From a phage, in assembly GCA_009015555.1 (NCBI GenBank), contig GCA_009015555.1_3613.1: a DNA stretch of 64,000 nt. One strand, 5' to 3'. Position 1 is the first letter of the stretch. Each line of letters begins with the position of its first letter. Positions 3,573 through 61,923 of this stretch are shown in pieces. Below the pieces are notes generated by a model. The model saw nothing but the letters and a program-made list of their open reading frames with translations, made no database searches and was not told the DNA's origin. Both the position numbers and the translations under genes were made by a program.

Positions 3573-4218
3573 ACAGGTCGCTCCCTTTACAGTCTTGCAC
3601 AAAATCACAAATCTTACGGACCGTGCCGTTCAGATCGCCTTCTTCGTTCAGGATGTCAGTTTCATACATCCGAAGATGTTCAGGAAACTCTTTCGCATAG
3701 ATATATCGGCGAGAATCCCCATCGAAATTGTACTCCGTGCCATCTTTTTTCAGACGGTGGATTCGGACAAGGAAATAGTTGTCCGGGCCAACCACATTCA
3801 CAACCGGGATCGACTCCTCTAAGAAGCCCCCGTCGCTGACCACAACTACCAGTTGCACGTCTGCCGGGGTTTCATCCTTCAGCTTTTGCAACTTGGCGGC
3901 AAATGCCTTACCAAACACATCATTCCCAAATGTGGGCTTCATGATGTTCTCGGAGCAGTGGATCATCCAGTCACGAGGGCTGACGTTTACGCCGTTGATC
4001 TGGAGATACGGGCACGGCTTCTCTTTGTACTCACGCTCATACAGAGCGAACCACAGCTTACGGCTCAGGCCGGATGCCCGGATAGCGATATCGAACAGAA
4101 GTTCCTTGAACTCCATGTGGACGACTTCAAACCCCGGGGTGTTGATATAGCTGTGGAGACCTTCGCACAGTGCATCTTTTCCCGCGCCCGCCGGGGCATT
4201 CAAATTAATCAGAATCAT
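3559..4218 (-). CDS. Deoxynucleoside monophosphate kinase (P-loop)
   Basis: MILINLNAPAGAGKD Walker A at N-terminus; start overlaps upstream stop as TAATG (translational coupling). Confidence 0.72.
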   Translation of the reverse strand: MILINLNAPAGAGKDALCEGLHSYINTPGFEVVHMEFKELLFDIAIRASGLSRKLWFALYEREYKEKPCPYLQINGVNVSPRDWMIHCSENIMKPTFGNDVFGKAFAAKLQKLKDETPADVQLVVVVSDGGFLEESIPVVNVVGPDNYFLVRIHRLKKDGTEYNFDGDSRRYIYAKEFPEHLRMYETDILNEEGDLNGTVRKICDFVQDCKGSDLYVIH

Positions 4219-4529
4219 TAGTGCTCCCACTCCTCTCTGTACCATTTTGGCATAGGTGCCAAATAACCATTCACACGCTCAAGTTCGTTAAGGATCTTCT
4301 CTGCCGAACTTAATTTTGTAAAGCGGCGGAGGGTCTTCCACCCCTTGTAATGAACCGGGAGTTCAAAACACTCATAAGAGCCTTCGCAATACCTGAACTC
4401 TTGAACCCGATACTTAAAGAAATAAGCTCTCGGGTCGTACTGGATTCGATATTTGAACTGATCGCCATTATCCCGATGCGCCTGCTTTTTGTCAAGGGCC
4501 TTTTTCATTTCTTGGGAGATGAACATCAT
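4218..4529 (-). CDS. hypothetical protein (103 aa)
   Basis: ORF with coupled stop/start to downstream kinase gene. Confidence 0.5.
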   Translation of the reverse strand: MMFISQEMKKALDKKQAHRDNGDQFKYRIQYDPRAYFFKYRVQEFRYCEGSYECFELPVHYKGWKTLRRFTKLSSAEKILNELERVNGYLAPMPKWYREEWEH

Positions 4530-10517: not shown

Positions 10518-10852
10518 AGTCCATCTCCAAAAATCAGGGACGCCGGGCAACTGATCCGGCAGTCTTTTGCTAACGGGAAGTCCTGCAACCACTGCGCCAG
10601 TAGGATGCTCGAACTGTTTTTGTAATCACCGGAGTTGATGTGGATGTATCCGATCTCCCAAGGGAACAGAGGGCTGTTCACGATGTGAGTCTCCACAATG
10701 TCCGTCAACTGACCATAAGTGATCAAGTTCTCTGCCTTCGATGGCAGGTACAAGCCGAAGCGAAGACCCGCCGGGCCAGTCGGTTCCATCTTACGGAACC
10801 CTACCGCCTTGGACATGTCTACCGCAAACACCTCAATAGTTACAGTTTCCAT
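10514..10852 (-). CDS. hypothetical protein (112 aa)
   Basis: ORF only. Confidence 0.45.
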   Translation of the reverse strand: METVTIEVFAVDMSKAVGFRKMEPTGPAGLRFGLYLPSKAENLITYGQLTDIVETHIVNSPLFPWEIGYIHINSGDYKNSSSILLAQWLQDFPLAKDCRISCPASLIFGDGL

Positions 10853-11229
10853 CAGTAAAGATCCTCGCTAAACAGTGTATCGTATGGCGCACCTTTTTTA
10901 CGCACCGTGTTGATCTGTCCTGCGTGAGTGGCAATGACCAGGGCATCTTGTCGGTTGTGATACTCTCCCCATTGGTCGATAAAACCCTGCTCTTCACCCG
11001 CTACAAAACGAGTAGAAATTTTATCTTCCAAGAGGTCAAGAACCTCAGCCATATCTTTGGAATAGTGACGAGACCCCGGAACTACCACAAAACCACCAGT
11101 CTTCAGTTCGAAGCGGTTGGCGGCACAAACAATCCGTCGCTGCAATTTGCGACCGTCCCACCAGTCGGCGATCTTATAACAAATTTCCGGGAGACCTTCT
11201 TTTACGGTATCTTCCATCAGTTCCTCCAA
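10852..11229 (-). CDS. hypothetical protein (125 aa)
   Basis: ORF only. Confidence 0.45.
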   Translation of the reverse strand: MEELMEDTVKEGLPEICYKIADWWDGRKLQRRIVCAANRFELKTGGFVVVPGSRHYSKDMAEVLDLLEDKISTRFVAGEEQGFIDQWGEYHNRQDALVIATHAGQINTVRKKGAPYDTLFSEDLY

Positions 11230-11429
11230 TATACGTTTTTGTCTTTTTTAATCATGCGGCTTACCTCTTTTGCCGACAAACGGTCATAACTTGCTCCGTT
11301 TTCCCGGTATGCGCCGCATGGGACCCATTCAGGGATAGAAAAGCTATAGTGCTGGTAGAAGATAGTACCTTTGGCAATTTCAATCTCCAGCCAAGGGAGA
11401 TGAACCTCGCGGATTTTGAAATATGTCAT
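11217..11429 (-). CDS. hypothetical protein (70 aa)
   Basis: ORF only. Confidence 0.38.
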   Translation of the reverse strand: MTYFKIREVHLPWLEIEIAKGTIFYQHYSFSIPEWVPCGAYRENGASYDRLSAKEVSRMIKKDKNVYWRN

Positions 11430-24325: not shown

Positions 24326-24413
24326 GGGGAGTTATTTCCGTAGAGGTAGCGGTGCAGACTGTAAATCTGTTGTCATTGCGACTCGGGTGGTTCGACTCCA
24401 TCACTCCCCACCA
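24326..24413 (+). tRNA. tRNA-Tyr (anticodon GTA), long variable arm
   Basis: Acceptor ggggagt/actcccc, anticodon loop ctgtaaa, T-loop ttcgact, CCA. Confidence 0.75.
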
Positions 24414-25978: not shown

Positions 25979-26071
25979 GGAAGATAGGGCGTAGTGGTAC
26001 GCACCCGGATTTGAACCCCGGCCCGCTGTGGCGACCCCACGGTGATAGTTCGACTCTATTATCTTCCGCCA
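25979..26071 (+). tRNA. tRNA-Ser (anticodon TGA), long variable arm
   Basis: Acceptor ggaagat/atcttcc, anticodon loop tttgaac, long variable arm, T-loop ttcgact, CCA. Confidence 0.65.
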
Positions 26072-26092
26072 CCCCTGATCATAAGGCAAACT

Positions 26093-26785
26093 ATGTTAGA
26101 AATGTTAACAGTGGGTAAATACACCCCTAGTCCTATAATTTCTAGCCCTATGGATGCTTATTTTGAGGGCGAGAGGAATAATAAATACGGCACTGTTGAG
26201 TGGGTTGTTCCTCAAGGCGTCACCTCAATCTGCTGTGTAGTGATAGGCGCAGGATCTTCTGGCAGAAGCGGCGGTCTTTCTTGGAGAAACAACATTCCAG
26301 TTACACCTGGTGAAAAACTTAAAATGCAGGTTAACTCCACAGCCAGCGCCCTCTTGAGAGAGACAACTATCCTTTGTGCTGCCCAGTGTGGCGGCAACGG
26401 AGGAAAAACATATAACTCTGTGAACGACGGTGGAGGCAATGCTGGACAATCACCACATGGTAGAGGTGGTGCTGGCGGCTACACCGGGAATGGTGGTGAT
26501 GGGCATACGTTCACAGGTGGTCCAGGACCAGGGTCCCCAGGTTCAGGTGGCGGCGGCGGCGGAGGCGCAGTTGTGTATCTGAACGGATCATTGACACCAA
26601 CTGTCTGCGGCGGAGTCGGCATGTATGGACAGGGGTCGAATGGTGGCGCTGATAACAGCGCCGGATATCCAGGCTCCGGCGGTTCTGGAACAAGATACGG
26701 AAGAGCAGTCGATGGTTATGGTGTTGTCAGGGTTGTGTGGGGAAATTATTCATTCCCAACAAATGCCCCGAGACCGAAATCCTGA
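26093..26785 (+). CDS. glycine-rich hypothetical protein (~230 aa) embedded in tRNA array
   Basis: Start taken at MLEMLTVGKY (track ORF start at 26042 lies inside tRNA-Ser); Gly-rich GGxGG runs and C-terminal GYGVVRVVWG. Confidence 0.5.
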   Translation: MLEMLTVGKYTPSPIISSPMDAYFEGERNNKYGTVEWVVPQGVTSICCVVIGAGSSGRSGGLSWRNNIPVTPGEKLKMQVNSTASALLRETTILCAAQCGGNGGKTYNSVNDGGGNAGQSPHGRGGAGGYTGNGGDGHTFTGGPGPGSPGSGGGGGGGAVVYLNGSLTPTVCGGVGMYGQGSNGGADNSAGYPGSGGSGTRYGRAVDGYGVVRVVWGNYSFPTNAPRPKS

Positions 26786-26948: not shown

Positions 26949-27024
26949 GGAACTGTAGCTCAGTTGGTAGAGCGGTTGCCTGAAGAGCAGCGCGTCAGCG
27001 GTTCAAATCCGTTCAGTTCCACCA
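26949..27024 (+). tRNA. tRNA-Phe (anticodon GAA)
   Basis: Acceptor ggaactg/cagttcc, D-arm gctc-agttggtaga-gagc, anticodon loop ctgaaga, T-loop ttcaaat, CCA. Confidence 0.8.
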
Positions 27025-27066
27025 CATTCTAACAAGAATAAAATATCTCCTCTCCTTCGCCTCAGT

Positions 27067-27091
27067 GCCCTCCTTCGTGGAGGGCTTTTTT
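27067..27091 (+). terminator. Rho-independent terminator closing the tRNA array
   Basis: gccctcc-ttcgt-ggagggc hairpin followed by tttttt. Confidence 0.65.
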
Positions 27092-27130
27092 ATTTCTGGT
27101 TTCGGTGATAAAATACCCAAAGGAGGTATT

Positions 27131-27502
27131 ATGACAACTTTCATATTGAAGTACAAGAAGTACCTGATCGGCATCGGGGTCGCGGCCCTTCTGCTGTTCT
27201 CCTTTAATTGGTATGTCGGCACCAAGGAGGATGCGGCTTATGACCGTGGCTTTCAGTATGCAAACACCCAGTGGGAGAAAAAGGGAAAAGAGTACGTTGA
27301 TCTTATCGACAAAGGTAAGGCTGACAACACGGCTCTTAATGAAGAACTGGCTCGGGTATCTGAGGAAAAGCGTAAGCTGGAAGAAGCCCGCCGTCATAAT
27401 GTAAACGACAAACAGGTCGAATACAACAAAACTGAAGCCGCCCGGAAGAAAGGGTTGGACGATGACTTTGTGGATCTGTACAACGAATCCTTGGGGGACT
27501 GA
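27131..27502 (+). CDS. i-spanin-like (Rz-like) inner-membrane lysis protein
   Basis: AAAGGAGG RBS; N-terminal TM helix LIGIGVAALLLFSF then charged coiled-coil region. Confidence 0.58.
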   Translation: MTTFILKYKKYLIGIGVAALLLFSFNWYVGTKEDAAYDRGFQYANTQWEKKGKEYVDLIDKGKADNTALNEELARVSEEKRKLEEARRHNVNDKQVEYNKTEAARKKGLDDDFVDLYNESLGD

Positions 27503-27816
27503 TGAGAAAATTTATTCTCGGAATGTTCATGGTTCTGGCACTGTCAGCGTGCAGCAACAAAGACAGAATCCCAGAGGTTGCCTTCAAGGGCACCACGGTA
27601 GAAGACCTTGTAGATAAGCCGGACCGAGAGCTAATGCGTAAGGCTCCACCAAAGCAGTACCTCAAGAAAGGTACAGACAACGGTGAAGGCGCGGTTGTTA
27701 TAAGTAACAACAACTTGCGGGCAGCGACAGTCGAGCGCAGGCTCGAAGACCTCCAGCAATACGTCTGCAACCTCTTCCAAGACCCAGTTGGGGAAGTCTG
27801 CGTAAAGGGTAAGTGA
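27502..27816 (+). CDS. o-spanin-like (Rz1-like) outer-membrane lipoprotein
   Basis: Lipobox LALSAC after signal peptide; ATGA overlap with upstream i-spanin-like gene. Confidence 0.62.
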   Translation: MRKFILGMFMVLALSACSNKDRIPEVAFKGTTVEDLVDKPDRELMRKAPPKQYLKKGTDNGEGAVVISNNNLRAATVERRLEDLQQYVCNLFQDPVGEVCVKGK

Positions 27817-27824
27817 TTGTGCCA

Positions 27825-27858
27825 AAAGGCTCTCCATACGTGGAGGGCCTTTTCTTTT
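27825..27858 (+). terminator. Terminator-like hairpin with T-run
   Basis: ggctctcca-tacg-tggagggcc followed by ttttctttt; lies inside the TTG-initiated track ORF, supporting the later terminase start. Confidence 0.5.
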
Positions 27859-27921
27859 AGGTCACTTTGTGATAATATACCTACTATCGAAGCATGTCAA
27901 TTTATTTATTCAGGAGAGTTA

Positions 27922-29409
27922 ATGTCCGCTACATTCGCACCCGCGAGTCGTAAGCAACAGATGGTTCTCGAATCTAAAGCACAGATCCTCATCATGGGTG
28001 GCGCAGCAGGCTCCGGCAAATCTTACCTGCTCCAGTTGATGCCCCTGTTGATCATTGATGATCCTCGTACAGCTTGCATCATGTTCCGCCGTACAGTGCC
28101 TCAGATTCGTGGTCAGGGCGGTCTGTTCGACAAAGCGAAAGATATTTACAACCAGCTTCCTCCGGTCGTCAAGCCTAAGTTCAAAGAGAACGAGATGATT
28201 GCGACCTTCCCGAACGGGGCGACGGTGAAGTGGCAGTCCATGCAGCACATCAACGATAAGTATAACATCCAGGGTCTGGAATTTACTTTCATTGGTGTGG
28301 ATGAAGGGACCCAGTTTGACTGGGAACAGCTTGAGTACATGATGTCGCGTTTGCGTTCAAACTCAAAGTACCCTTCCCGTATGGTCGTATCTTGTAACCC
28401 CGACCCGGATCATAAGCTCCGGGAAATGATTGACTGGTATCTGGATGAGAATGGTCTGCCGATCCCTGAACGTGACGGAGTTATCCGTTGGTTTGTTCGT
28501 GTGGATGACAACTACATCTGGGGTTCCACCAAGGAAGAACTGAAGCAACGCTTCGGTAAGAAATGTAAGCCTGTTTCATTCAGCTTCATCTCTTCCACCA
28601 TTTACGACAACCCTCCGATGCTGATCAACAACCCGGAGTACCTTGCCCAGTTGGAAGGTCTGAACGATGTTGACCGCGCCCGCCTGCTTCACGGCAACTG
28701 GGACGCTCGCCCGGAAGGTGCAAACTATTTCAAACGTGAGTTCCTGAAAGAGGTGGATTGCCTCCCGATGAACGTCACGAAAGTCCGTGCTTACGATAAG
28801 GCAGGTACGGAGCGATCCACAGCAAACAAAACCCCTGACTTTACGGCGGGGATTGGTGTGGCCCGCGATGACGACGGATTTTATTACCTGTATGGAAACT
28901 ACCATGACGATTTCATCGACAATGGTGAGTGGTCCACTGGCACCGCCGGGCGCTTCTGTAAGAAAGCTGGCGAACGTGACGTGATTATCACGAAGCAGGC
29001 AATGCTGGACGGTGACGACACAATCGTCATTTTCTCCGTTGACCCCGGTCAGGCAGGTATCTCCGAGTTCACCACGTCATCCCGTGATCTTATCTCGAAA
29101 GGGTATATGGTAGAGAAAGACCCGACACCCGGTAACAAATCGAAGCTAACCCGCTTCTCCCCGTTTGCCCAGTTGGCACAGAACGGATTTGTCCGGATCG
29201 TTAAGAAGTCATTCCCTCTGGACACGTACAACGCATTGATGAAAGAACTTGAGTCTTTCAACGGTGAACGTTCTACCGGGTCCCGTAAGGATGACTGGGC
29301 GGATGCCGTGGCATCAGGAATTAACTTCCTGGAGAAGACCGAGGTCGTCCGCGCCGTCGCTATTCCTCGACCAAATGCCCCTACTCTGTACGCCTCACGT
29401 CGTTATTAA
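27922..29409 (+). CDS. Terminase large subunit
   Basis: Walker A GGAAGSGKS, Walker B-like FIGVDEG, nuclease-domain SCNPDPDH; RBS AGGAGA before ATG at 27922. Confidence 0.85.
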   Translation: MSATFAPASRKQQMVLESKAQILIMGGAAGSGKSYLLQLMPLLIIDDPRTACIMFRRTVPQIRGQGGLFDKAKDIYNQLPPVVKPKFKENEMIATFPNGATVKWQSMQHINDKYNIQGLEFTFIGVDEGTQFDWEQLEYMMSRLRSNSKYPSRMVVSCNPDPDHKLREMIDWYLDENGLPIPERDGVIRWFVRVDDNYIWGSTKEELKQRFGKKCKPVSFSFISSTIYDNPPMLINNPEYLAQLEGLNDVDRARLLHGNWDARPEGANYFKREFLKEVDCLPMNVTKVRAYDKAGTERSTANKTPDFTAGIGVARDDDGFYYLYGNYHDDFIDNGEWSTGTAGRFCKKAGERDVIITKQAMLDGDDTIVIFSVDPGQAGISEFTTSSRDLISKGYMVEKDPTPGNKSKLTRFSPFAQLAQNGFVRIVKKSFPLDTYNALMKELESFNGERSTGSRKDDWADAVASGINFLEKTEVVRAVAIPRPNAPTLYASRRY

Positions 29410-60400: not shown

Positions 60401-60688
60401 ACTTCAGGATCGGGGTCTTGGATTCCAGACGGGCTTCAGTCCGTTTATAACGTGACGGTTACCGCCGATACCGTTATCGGTTCCATTGCTCAGTTGCCGG
60501 GCGCGGGGACTTACTTCTTCTATATCGAGCAGGATGCTGTTGGGGGCCACACTGTGACCTTTGACCCAGCTTACCTCAAGATTGGTGATGGAGAAGTGGC
60601 TACAGCGCCAAACGCAATCTCTCTGGTCCAAGTAATCTACCGTGGTAAAGGTTCAATCTTCGACTACGTGATTCTTAACCGAGGTTAA
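57464..60688 (+). CDS. Long tail fibre protein with internal repeated modules (GTG start)
   Basis: 1074-aa protein with repeated VTGT..GV..DVDG.DI.PRSV units; RBS GAGGAG before GTG. Confidence 0.62.
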   Translation: MSSNTDIIALLSSDADKAVDQIIEDSKRLHIVVNGTGTEQAVAEDGSLLPSVRKALIDNLYFKTPPLPWRNGGSVNEFNQLYSFTDVSGNTTWWYAPGATVSNPVVMRDSPINDGKFKVFLDKTNIADIYAPLNSPNFVGNPRVPTPAPGDNSQTVPTTGWVQSEMQDLEDQIIASMKGDFENITVRNDAVLKDTYISGEFIVTSDKLSAASAEATFRRIRVVGTADNTEIAFEQNTAPPAGASTKTNIKPYTMSTGILTIDQLKGKSAQIGDVAVATDSLNVDGYMRGDYLHLEGNNRNSTTRPQLIVDGIAEINTLRVTGTIEGVKADVDGLDIHPRSVIIDEGLTVGKDTSLTGKLTVGGTTKVNNLEVTGTLSGVAISVDGKDIKPRSVNTGNLVATGNVQISGTTTATGKITTQDLEVLGTLTANLDLSGSDLSVDNINVAETATIKDLVVTGKTTGVKGDVDGTLIKPSSVQATGLVSAGSLSTNANASIGGNLTVTGEFRPASMETGAVEADSLVVNGNISQTTGTTSVVNLVVTGTTTGVTADVNGDDILPRSVTTTAGVKVGTTLDVTGKTTLGDVDFTGVVTGLELDLSQKNVTVKSIAAVDPSAFGDVTTDNLTNSEKIITQDIQVLGDILDAAGNPVNTFDVTGKDILPNSVQSATFIRGKTLDISDGSTLRGPVEFRNGLTVTLGDIMSPQGKATFNDVQVNGALTDANGNVIGSVESIKGKDIEPRSVVATVSVQAPRLQSTGDILGQSATITNNVSAGTLGVSGLTNLAETRVNAKLTGQSTEFETLLLKRVAGQDTPRLVVQGDSDLQGDLNVSGTITGIVDLTAQDIRMNSLVLAEDLSARNITGSGTVQGANGIFGQSSQPTTQYGLQSLSSAKVDKNLDVGGNLRVTGAITGSMDFTGKDITPRSVAASAGIGAVDITASGTTTTKDLVVTGTTSFAGDSVFNAGQVKSKLFTVDIGTDITSGSGSWIPDGLQSVYNVTVTADTVIGSIAQLPGAGTYFFYIEQDAVGGHTVTFDPAYLKIGDGEVATAPNAISLVQVIYRGKGSIFDYVILNRG

Positions 60689-60690
60689 TA

Positions 60691-60716
60691 CAGCCGCCTT
60701 CGGGCGGCTTTTATTT
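60691..60716 (+). terminator. Rho-independent terminator
   Basis: agccgccttcgggcggct followed by tttatttt. Confidence 0.65.
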
Positions 60717-60726
60717 TGGAGGTATT

Positions 60727-61923
60727 ATGTTTCCTTTTGCTATTATTCCACCGTTTGTTCTTTCAGGCAAGGAAAAAATCAAGCAGTTTTCGGTTACGTC
60801 TTACGACAGTATGGTCCTGACTGATAAGGGGAACCTGTATGTTACAGGATTCAACCGGGTGGGTGAGCTTGGTGTTGGGGACACAACTAACCGAAATAAC
60901 CAATGGGTTTTGGTAATGCAGGACGTAAACTGGATTGCAAGCAACCGTGAGAAGCTGTGGGCAATTAAGAACGACGGTTCCATTTACACCCCGGATCTTC
61001 GGTCATCCAGTACAACTGCATATACTTGGCAAATCGACACGGTAGCACCTGGAAGTATTGGGGATTTGTCTGGGGATAATATCAAGGAGATTTACAGCGA
61101 CACAGAGAGCGTATATATCCTCAAAAAGGATGGTTCACTGTGGTATCTGGGAAATAACTCTAAAGGCCAAGCTGGAAACGGGGGAACTTCCTTAACCACA
61201 CGCTTTGTGAAGGTTTCAGATGGTGTGGTATCTTGGTCATCCAGTGGACCCACTGTTGTTTTCGTGAAAACAGACGGATACTTCTGGGGCTGCGGATCAA
61301 ATTCCCGAAATATCATTTCCTCTGCTGGCAGCAGTATCACAACCCCTACCCGGATGTTTAGCACCACCCACGCTGACGGAGGTGTTGTAACAGATTACAC
61401 GCTGGCCTCTGACCAAGCGTTTTTGATCAGATATAGTAATGGTAAATATCGTACCAAAGGTCTCAATATCGGACAACTTCCTTCAGGGGATGCAAGTCCA
61501 TACAATACCCTTACGGACGTTCCTGACGGATACACCCCCGGTGATGGAACGGAGCCTCTGGTAAGCAAAACAGGAGGGGTGTCGGCCTCTGGAACTTGGC
61601 CTAACTATAGTGGTCTTTTCTTCTACCATACGGGAGGGAAATTCATAGTCACTGGTCAAGCAAGCGGGAGAATTTCCGGGACCAGCCAAACCAGCGGTAC
61701 ACTCTCAAACTGGACCAATGTCGATGCGGCAAGTGACGAGATCCCATCTATCAAGGGAATGACCTTCGGACTGGGTTGGGTTGCTGCCTACAACGATACG
61801 CAGATTCTGTACTGGGGGTATACGGGAAACTCCTCTGCATATCCGGTTGTGGGATACCTAATGCCCGGACCTTCAAGGCTTGAATATGTGGCACGTTTTG
61901 CAACCCCGCCGATCGAGGCATAA
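60727..61923 (+). CDS. RCC1-like repeat (beta-propeller) protein
   Basis: Recurrent G.N..GQ.G.G / LG.G units (GFNRVGELGVGD, GNNSKGQAGNGG, GLNIGQLPSG). Confidence 0.5.
   Translation: MFPFAIIPPFVLSGKEKIKQFSVTSYDSMVLTDKGNLYVTGFNRVGELGVGDTTNRNNQWVLVMQDVNWIASNREKLWAIKNDGSIYTPDLRSSSTTAYTWQIDTVAPGSIGDLSGDNIKEIYSDTESVYILKKDGSLWYLGNNSKGQAGNGGTSLTTRFVKVSDGVVSWSSSGPTVVFVKTDGYFWGCGSNSRNIISSAGSSITTPTRMFSTTHADGGVVTDYTLASDQAFLIRYSNGKYRTKGLNIGQLPSGDASPYNTLTDVPDGYTPGDGTEPLVSKTGGVSASGTWPNYSGLFFYHTGGKFIVTGQASGRISGTSQTSGTLSNWTNVDAASDEIPSIKGMTFGLGWVAAYNDTQILYWGYTGNSSAYPVVGYLMPGPSRLEYVARFATPPIEA

Follow-up and report, generated by a model that had tools for sequence, protein, structure and literature searches.

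The segment between positions 27131 and 27816 of the window (the whole 64-kb stretch of phage DNA analysed here) carries two small open reading frames between a tRNA array and the genes for DNA packaging. It raises the question of whether these frames encode the two subunits of a spanin and, if so, whether a position with no adjacent holin or endolysin gene is out of the ordinary. As judged from its sequence, the segment very probably encodes the two-component spanin of a CR3-like Certrevirus (Vequintavirinae), and all of the sequence-level features that define a two-component spanin can be recognized in the predicted products. The pair itself and its terminase-side position, far from the endolysin, have already been annotated and published. 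The 18 tRNAs detected with ARAGORN lie between 23478 and 27024, the last one being a tRNA-Phe that ends at 27024; these tRNAs and the neighbouring genes are all located on the + strand. The features of the locus are compiled in Table 1.

Table 1. Positions of the predicted genes and of the putative expression signals at the spanin locus, in coordinates of the window.
Feature	Position	Strand	Remarks
Intrinsic-terminator-like hairpin GCCCTCC-TTCGT-GGAGGGC with T-run	27067..27095	+	After tRNA-Phe, upstream of i-spanin gene; terminator scan
TGATAAAATA, extended -10-like candidate promoter of the spanin pair (putative)	27106..27115	+	Match to TGNTAAWATR
i-spanin gene, 123 aa	27131..27502	+	Start ATG 27131, stop TGA 27500-27502
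o-spanin gene, 104-aa precursor	27502..27816	+	Start ATG 27502, stop TGA 27814-27816
Strong terminator-like hairpin, 13-bp stem with T-run	27824..27863	+	Directly after o-spanin stop; terminator scan
TGATAATATA, second copy of the promoter-like motif	27870..27879	+	Upstream of the ATG (27922) of the terminase large-subunit gene

The first gene of the pair is preceded by an AGGAGG Shine-Dalgarno sequence (27121-27126). Its product begins with MTTFILKYKKY, in which KYKKY precedes the hydrophobic segment (positive-inside). This transmembrane segment (LIGIGVAALLLFSFNWYVG, residues 12-30; Kyte-Doolittle 19-residue mean 1.79) is N-terminal, is the only one in the protein and is kept across the 21 homologues in the alignment. 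The predicted topology is that of the single-transmembrane, type II (N-in/C-out) subunit of two-component spanins. Charged residues account for 44% of the 91 positions that follow it (17 K+R, 23 D+E); no proline occurs beyond the transmembrane segment, and the protein is free of cysteine there and elsewhere. An AlphaFold2 model computed with the 21-sequence alignment as input consists of one unbroken helix from residue 9 to residue 99 (mean pLDDT 89.5), which points to the charged, mainly alpha-helical or coiled-coil periplasmic domain that is characteristic of i-spanins. The best-conserved part of the protein in the homologue alignment is the C-terminal motif LDDxFVDLYNxSLG. The product matches phrog_4297 (Rz-like spanin) over residues 1-123 with an E-value of 1.1e-45 and is 99.2% identical to CR3 gp264, which is of the same length. 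(The GTG at 27065, which would extend the protein to 145 aa, was discarded as an alternative start: this codon falls within the terminator hairpin, the ATG is the one that has a Shine-Dalgarno sequence ahead of it, and all aligned i-spanin homologues of the Certrevirus type start at the ATG or at most three residues from it.)

The product of the second gene begins with MRKFILGMFMVLALSAC, in which a positively charged n-region and a hydrophobic core are followed by the lipobox, MRKFILGMFMVLA-LSAC, with Cys17 and with Ser, not Asp, at +2. LSAC fits both the lipobox expression [LVI][ASTVI][GAS]C and a PROSITE PS51257-like rule, and Cys17 is retained by all 21 homologues of the alignment, which reaches down to 29% identity. 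The Pfam model LPAM_1 scored 15.2 bits on this protein, below its cut-off of 20. The protein is accordingly predicted to carry a signal for signal peptidase II that is devoid of the Lol-avoidance Asp at +2. The mature part comprises 88 residues, with a C-terminal helix (60-91) in the AlphaFold2 model and two cysteines, Cys89 and Cys100, within the last 16 residues, each of them present in at least 90% of the 21 homologues. The match to phrog_1267 (Rz-like spanin) covers residues 1-104 (E-value 5.2e-27), and the protein is 99.0% identical to CR3 gp265, again of the same length. In a Foldseek comparison of the model with BFVD, E-values below 1e-3 were obtained for family members and one annotated O-spanin (E-value 4.6e-4) only; the weaker O-spanin matches were non-significant, as is expected of a model that is mostly a single helix.

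The genes are neighbours on one strand, with the i-spanin gene first, and their architecture is the separated one. At their junction (GAC TGA TGA) the stop codon of the i-spanin gene shares only its A with the ATG that opens the o-spanin gene (27502-27504). The original prediction had described the genes as coupled by ATGA; the overlap as such is real, but it is 1 nt long (TGATG) and not a 4-nt ATGA, the apparent ATGA being a product of the o-spanin ATG and a second in-frame TGA. For the Rz/Rz1 genes of Certrevirus, a stop codon overlapping the next start, as in T4, has been reported, and the spanin genes of CB7 show the same stop/start arrangement (Buttimer 2020, PMC7344957).

Homologues of the pair were found in more than 100 phage records. 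Scans of both proteins against Pfam and NCBIfam yielded no match above threshold; neither library models this spanin family. In RefSeq, CR3 gp264/gp265 and the corresponding genes of CR8, CR9, PBES 02 and phiTE are named 'Rz-like spanin'; these names and those of the PHROG lysis families rest on the same sequence features. In Proteus phage Mydo, which was annotated and deposited by Texas A&M (CPT), the homologues in the same position are named I-spanin and O-spanin. A survey of spanins groups CR3, CR9 and phiTE into one family each of separated i-spanins and separated o-spanins (Kongari 2018, PMC6139136). Similarity to the Certrevirus spanin families (phrog_4297, phrog_1267 and the CR3 proteins) extends over the full length of both products. 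The C-terminal motifs are the most conserved parts of both proteins, which fits the rule that spanin subunits bind to each other via their C-termini; this conservation reaches from Certrevirus to Seunavirus and Mydovirus. PHROG, RefSeq and the survey (PMC6139136) agree with the claim, first made from the letters of the DNA, of a separated i-spanin/o-spanin pair; its two components, an upstream transmembrane protein and a lipoprotein with a lipobox, are likewise recovered in the conserved segment 12-30 and in the LSAC motif with its invariant cysteine.

The combination of no cysteine in the i-spanin and two in the o-spanin, as observed here, is the commonest one among spanin pairs and also that of T4, and 507 of 528 spanin pairs were recorded to have, in one subunit or the other, at least one periplasmic cysteine close to the site of C-terminal interaction (Kongari 2018, PMC6139136); in the present pair this feature is supplied by C89 and C100 of the o-spanin. 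Among known systems, the experimentally tested PseT.3/PseT.2 pair of T4 is similar in several respects. It is likewise separated and has a stop/start overlap (4-nt ATGA), its proteins measure 117 and 99 aa (123 and 104 aa here), the lipobox cysteine is Cys17 in both phages, the i-spanin is devoid of cysteine, the o-spanin has a C-terminal helix, and the o-spanin cysteines, C87/C98 in T4 and C89/C100 here, are ten residues apart. However, hhalign comparison of the o-spanin alignment with PseT.2 gave a probability of 33% over 20 columns, confined to the signal peptide, and that of the i-spanin alignment with PseT.3 a probability of 0.4%. Homology to the T4 pair was therefore dropped, the match being limited to the signal peptide, and T4 is regarded as the closest tested analogue and not as a relative. 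The shared cysteine placement is either a resemblance in design or the trace of a relationship too old to be detected. Lambda Rz/Rz1 and T7 gp18.5/gp18.7 share the general design of a type II helical i-spanin combined with an outer-membrane lipoprotein with the present pair, but differ in their embedded architecture, in which a second frame within the i-spanin gene encodes the o-spanin. The Rz1 protein of lambda is, moreover, short, proline-rich and non-helical (PMC6139136).

Within the Vequintavirinae, the Certrevirus pairs (CR3, CR8, CR9, PBES 02, phiTE and CB7, the latter with CB7_252/253) share the position between tRNA-Phe and the large terminase gene, the stop/start overlap and the cysteines with the pair in the window. 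The pairs rV5 gp068/gp067, PVP-SE1 gp077/gp076 and Mydo I-spanin/O-spanin are homologous at 24-43% identity and have the same order and position, and their i-spanins share the C-terminal motif DxxFVDxYNxSLG with the i-spanin studied here. The T4-like C-x10-C design of the o-spanin occurs in Certrevirus and in E. coli phage A5-4, whereas PVP-SE1 and Mydo have cysteine-free o-spanins that are shorter at the C-terminus, with no periplasmic cysteine in either subunit. In the latter two phages the i-spanin gene also overlaps an upstream ORF, whereas that of the window follows a terminator.

The two hairpins that flank the pair (Table 1) were assessed by RNA folding. The upstream one folds with -15.4 kcal/mol (z -2.7), and its stem shows compensatory changes relative to A5-4, with conserved flanks; between the two phages, the intergenic module ahead of the i-spanin gene has 85-89% identity, whereas the spanin proteins are only 36-43% identical. 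The downstream one folds with -21.9 kcal/mol (z -4.2), and 0 of 200 shuffles were as stable. Between the upstream hairpin and the Shine-Dalgarno sequence lies GTGATAAAATACC, and between the downstream hairpin and the terminase start lies GTGATAATATACC. The consensus TGNTAAWATR occurs nine times in the window (0.94 expected), exclusively on the + strand, and according to the mapped CR3 annotation all nine sites are intergenic and just upstream of + strand genes, most of them structural; since the motif was defined post hoc, starting from the two copies on either side of the spanin genes, it is to be taken as a lead and not as a result. The description of Certrevirus (PMC7344957) contains only an early sigma70-like promoter, and the candidate late motif is absent there. 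The motif resembles an extended -10 promoter that would serve the late, rightward block. (A sigma70 scan also proposed a promoter at 27105-27132, but its -10 element overlaps the start codon, and TGATAAAATA at 27106 was preferred.) Taken together, these signals suggest that the spanin pair appears to be a small transcription unit of its own, bracketed by terminators and headed by the motif that also precedes the terminase gene and other structural genes. Such a layout would be expected to result in late expression of the spanins, independently of the distant endolysin and holin genes.

The location of both genes away from the endolysin could also be read differently, the o-spanin candidate being a lipoprotein for superinfection exclusion or receptor masking (such as Llp of T5 or the Cor proteins) and the membrane protein an unrelated neighbour, adjacent merely by gene packing. 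Small phage lipoproteins with other roles exist, and the NCBIfam model EexN (entry-exclusion lipoprotein) did match, at 12.1 bits, which is far under its cut-off of 33. We consider this explanation improbable, because in every lineage examined (Certrevirus, A5-4, Mydo and PVP-SE1) the lipoprotein gene directly follows the membrane-protein gene and is translationally coupled to it, the C-termini are the best-conserved regions in both proteins, as expected of binding partners, and the upstream partner shows exactly the design of an i-spanin. The candidate promoter, finally, is the motif found before structural genes, unlike the expression expected of an exclusion gene.

The gene order is shared with related phages. 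The sequence tRNA array, i-spanin, o-spanin, large terminase and portal is found in PBES 02, CR3, Mydo (Mydovirus) and PVP-SE1 (Seunavirus), and in A5-4 a homologous pair is located at the end of the record, in the corresponding position. A spanin pair beside the large terminase gene and outside any lysis cassette has been described for Certrevirus (CB7), rV5 and PVP-SE1, with similar arrangements in VP4 and SP6 (Buttimer 2020, PMC7344957). In T7, genes 18.5/18.7 likewise occupy the place directly upstream of gene 19, which encodes the large terminase. T4 pseT.3/pseT.2 are remote from the holin gene t and the endolysin gene e (PMC6139136, Fig. 8 legend), although they are situated among genes of nucleotide metabolism and not by the terminase. 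The lambda spanin genes, in contrast, sit in a holin-endolysin-spanin cassette; no such cluster surrounds the present genes, whose neighbours are tRNA genes and the terminase gene. Membership in a lysis cassette is not a defining property of spanins, since T4 lacks it as well (PMC6139136). The placement had initially been called unusual, a view that does not hold: with the same position in Mydo, PVP-SE1 and A5-4, its publication for Certrevirus, rV5 and PVP-SE1 (PMC7344957) and the parallels in T4 and T7, the terminase-side position is an inherited trait of the subfamily and typical of the family of phages concerned.

The conservation of this position just upstream of terminase and portal in four lineages, together with the occurrence of the same promoter-like motif ahead of the terminase gene, might in principle indicate a membrane-spanning complex with another late function, such as the anchoring of DNA packaging or assembly at the envelope. 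This possibility appears even more remote. The pair is parted from both of its neighbours by terminator hairpins, its products have every design feature of spanins, and no packaging system is known to use an outer-membrane lipoprotein. The tested spanin analogues of T7 are also encoded upstream of gene 19, so that the position is no argument against a role of the pair in lysis. That one or both frames are unexpressed and the true coding sequence is one of the - strand ORFs at 27062-27397 (111 aa) or 27336-27770 (144 aa) is hardly conceivable, as the + strand ORFs have Shine-Dalgarno sequences and PHROG matches, their products keep the start, the transmembrane segment, the lipobox and the C-termini in homologues as distant as 24-31% identity, and the surrounding genes and tRNAs are all on the + strand.

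The original prediction that the other lysis genes are located elsewhere is correct; in CR3 they are dispersed. CR3 gp087 (60,753-61,286, - strand) combines a Sec-type signal peptide with a SleB-like Hydrolase_2 domain (Pfam E-value 1.1e-22) and belongs to phrog_938 (endolysin). It is overlapped by gp086, which encodes a 62-aa membrane protein (both genes at 60.6-61.3 kb); the counterpart of gp086 was proposed as a class II holin (Buttimer 2020, PMC7344957). A second endolysin candidate, gp210 (115,673-116,266, - strand), contains GH108 (muramidase) and PG_binding_3 domains. The CR3 spanin genes are located at 148.5-149.2 kb, about 61 kb from gp087 and about 32 kb from gp210, both of which are on the strand opposite to the spanins and outside the span covered by the window. 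In keeping with this, tblastn searches of the 64-kb window with CR3 gp085, gp086, gp087, gp088, gp210 and gp211 found no endolysin or holin homologue (best E-values 0.11-0.9, short fragments; 0.93 or worse for the endolysin and holin candidates of the lineage).

A mechanism for the spanin pair can be proposed by analogy with the models for lambda Rz/Rz1 and T4 PseT.3/PseT.2; what is shown for the present proteins is their sequence design, their conservation and their family membership. The 123-aa product would be a type II inner-membrane protein whose periplasmic part forms one long charged helix. Signal peptidase II would cut the 104-aa product at Cys17; the protein would receive its lipid and would then be taken to the outer membrane by Lol, the latter because the residue at +2 is Ser and not Asp. 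Binding of the conserved C-termini of both proteins would then yield a complex that crosses the periplasm through the peptidoglycan mesh and is held in check as long as the peptidoglycan is intact. Degradation of this mesh by the endolysin would leave the complexes free to move, to collapse and to fuse the inner and outer membranes, which would constitute the last step of lysis. C89 and C100 of the o-spanin probably form homotypic disulfides that stabilise the complex, as C87/C98 do in T4 PseT.2. This disulfide step is not universal within the family, as the homologues from PVP-SE1 and Mydo are without periplasmic cysteine.

A more far-reaching reading has two parts, namely that the spanin pair of the Vequintavirinae is an autonomous late unit on a so far undescribed extended -10 promoter (TGnTAAAATA), and that the family has undergone a switch between cysteine-containing and cysteine-free o-spanins; we put it forward tentatively and consider it rather doubtful. 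If it were true, the supply of spanins would be set by the morphogenesis programme and not by the holin and endolysin genes, and the switch would be a natural test case for compensation in cysteine-less spanins. How such spanins compensate is a question left by an earlier survey (Kongari 2018, PMC6139136).

The significance of the locus is mainly one of annotation, since its products are the proteins predicted to carry out the last step of lysis in a well-sampled group of phages, which are under consideration as biocontrol agents against Cronobacter, Pectobacterium and E. coli. An annotator aware that the lysis genes are dispersed is less likely to label such phages 'spanin-less' or 'endolysin-less' after looking at one region. 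The candidate late-promoter motif and the contrast between cysteine-containing and cysteine-free spanins, which could be exploited experimentally, are modestly useful in addition.

The phage from which the window originates is closely related to Cronobacter phage CR3 (Certrevirus, Vequintavirinae) but is not CR3 itself; aligned blocks are 94-99.9% identical at the DNA level, with 98-99% identity at the spanin locus. Position 27922 of the window corresponds to nt 1 of CR3, the start of the terminase gene, and position 1 to approximately nt 120,185. Alignment to CR3 gp001 places the start of the terminase large subunit at ATG 27922, for which the TTG at 27817 in the list of ORFs was dropped. Within the tRNA array, CR3 and the window do not have the same ORF, and the spanins of the two differ by few substitutions.

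The upstream non-coding module of the i-spanin gene is much more conserved between Certrevirus and A5-4, a Vequintavirinae phage of E. coli, than the spanin proteins are, with 85-89% DNA identity against 36-43% for the proteins. Within the hairpin stem of the module, the differences between the window and A5-4 are compensatory changes. At the junction of the two spanin genes, the i-spanin frame is closed by a tandem stop, TGA-TGA (window 27500-27505), and the o-spanin ATG straddles both stops.

Coordinates of the features considered here.
Feature	Location	Strand	Remarks
Module upstream of i-spanin	window 27040-27130; L007 (Escherichia phage A5-4) 2550-2645		conserved left flank, hairpin, T-run, TTTCGGTGATAAAATA
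Homologous spanin pairs	L005 (Proteus phage Mydo, Mydovirus) 3600-4291; L006 (Salmonella phage PVP-SE1, Seunavirus) 3603-4291
gp087 and overlapping membrane protein	L003 (CR3 segment) 10568-11286 = CR3 60,568-61,286	-	outside window
Glycine-rich ORF	window 26042-26785, probable start ATG 26093	+	phrog_4474 (unknown function), E 5.8e-36
tRNA-Tyr(GTA)	window ~24326-24410	+	annotated in CR3 and PBES 02; aligned stretch identical to CR3
TGNTAAWATR sites	window 18526, 23751, 27106, 27870, 30993, 40774, 41374, 48358, 51961	+	motif count

The motif TGNTAAWATR, a pattern derived post hoc, occurs at nine sites in the window against 0.94 expected. All nine lie on the plus strand, are intergenic and stand shortly 5' of plus-strand genes, which code for the spanins, the terminase, neck and tail proteins, a virion protein and an XkdF-like product; at several sites a terminator hairpin precedes the motif by 15-25 nt. 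The motif is put forward as a candidate promoter of the extended -10 type for the late/structural block. In the Certrevirus paper, the one promoter described is early and sigma70-like (Buttimer et al. 2020, PMC7344957).

The homologous spanin pairs of Mydo and PVP-SE1 carry a periplasmic cysteine in neither subunit, and their o-spanin stops short of the C-x10-C region, whereas the Certrevirus o-spanin has C-x10-C. One homologous family therefore spans both cysteine-containing and 'cysteine-less' members, the latter being a class of approximately 4% that was left unexplained in the spanin survey (Kongari et al. 2018, PMC6139136).

Two CR3 genes are candidate endolysins of the lineage. The product of gp087 (SleB-like Hydrolase_2), which has a cleavable-looking Sec signal peptide (…SVPALA-KD) and whose gene overlaps that of a 62-aa membrane protein (phrog_10205) by 4 nt, is the likely endolysin; gp210 (GH108 and PG_binding_3), 55 kb from gp087, is a second muramidase candidate.

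Inside the tRNA array, the glycine-rich ORF sits between tRNA-Ser(tga) and tRNA-Ser(gct) and yielded no match in a Pfam search. CR3 carries the unrelated gp263 at this place (BLASTP E 0.33), and the PBES 02 annotation shows no CDS between the tRNA genes here; it looks like a variable cargo slot of the array. Elsewhere in the array, tRNA-Tyr(GTA) is present but was not called by ARAGORN in either the window or the CR3 sequence, and the array therefore comprises 19 tRNA genes, not 18 as listed.
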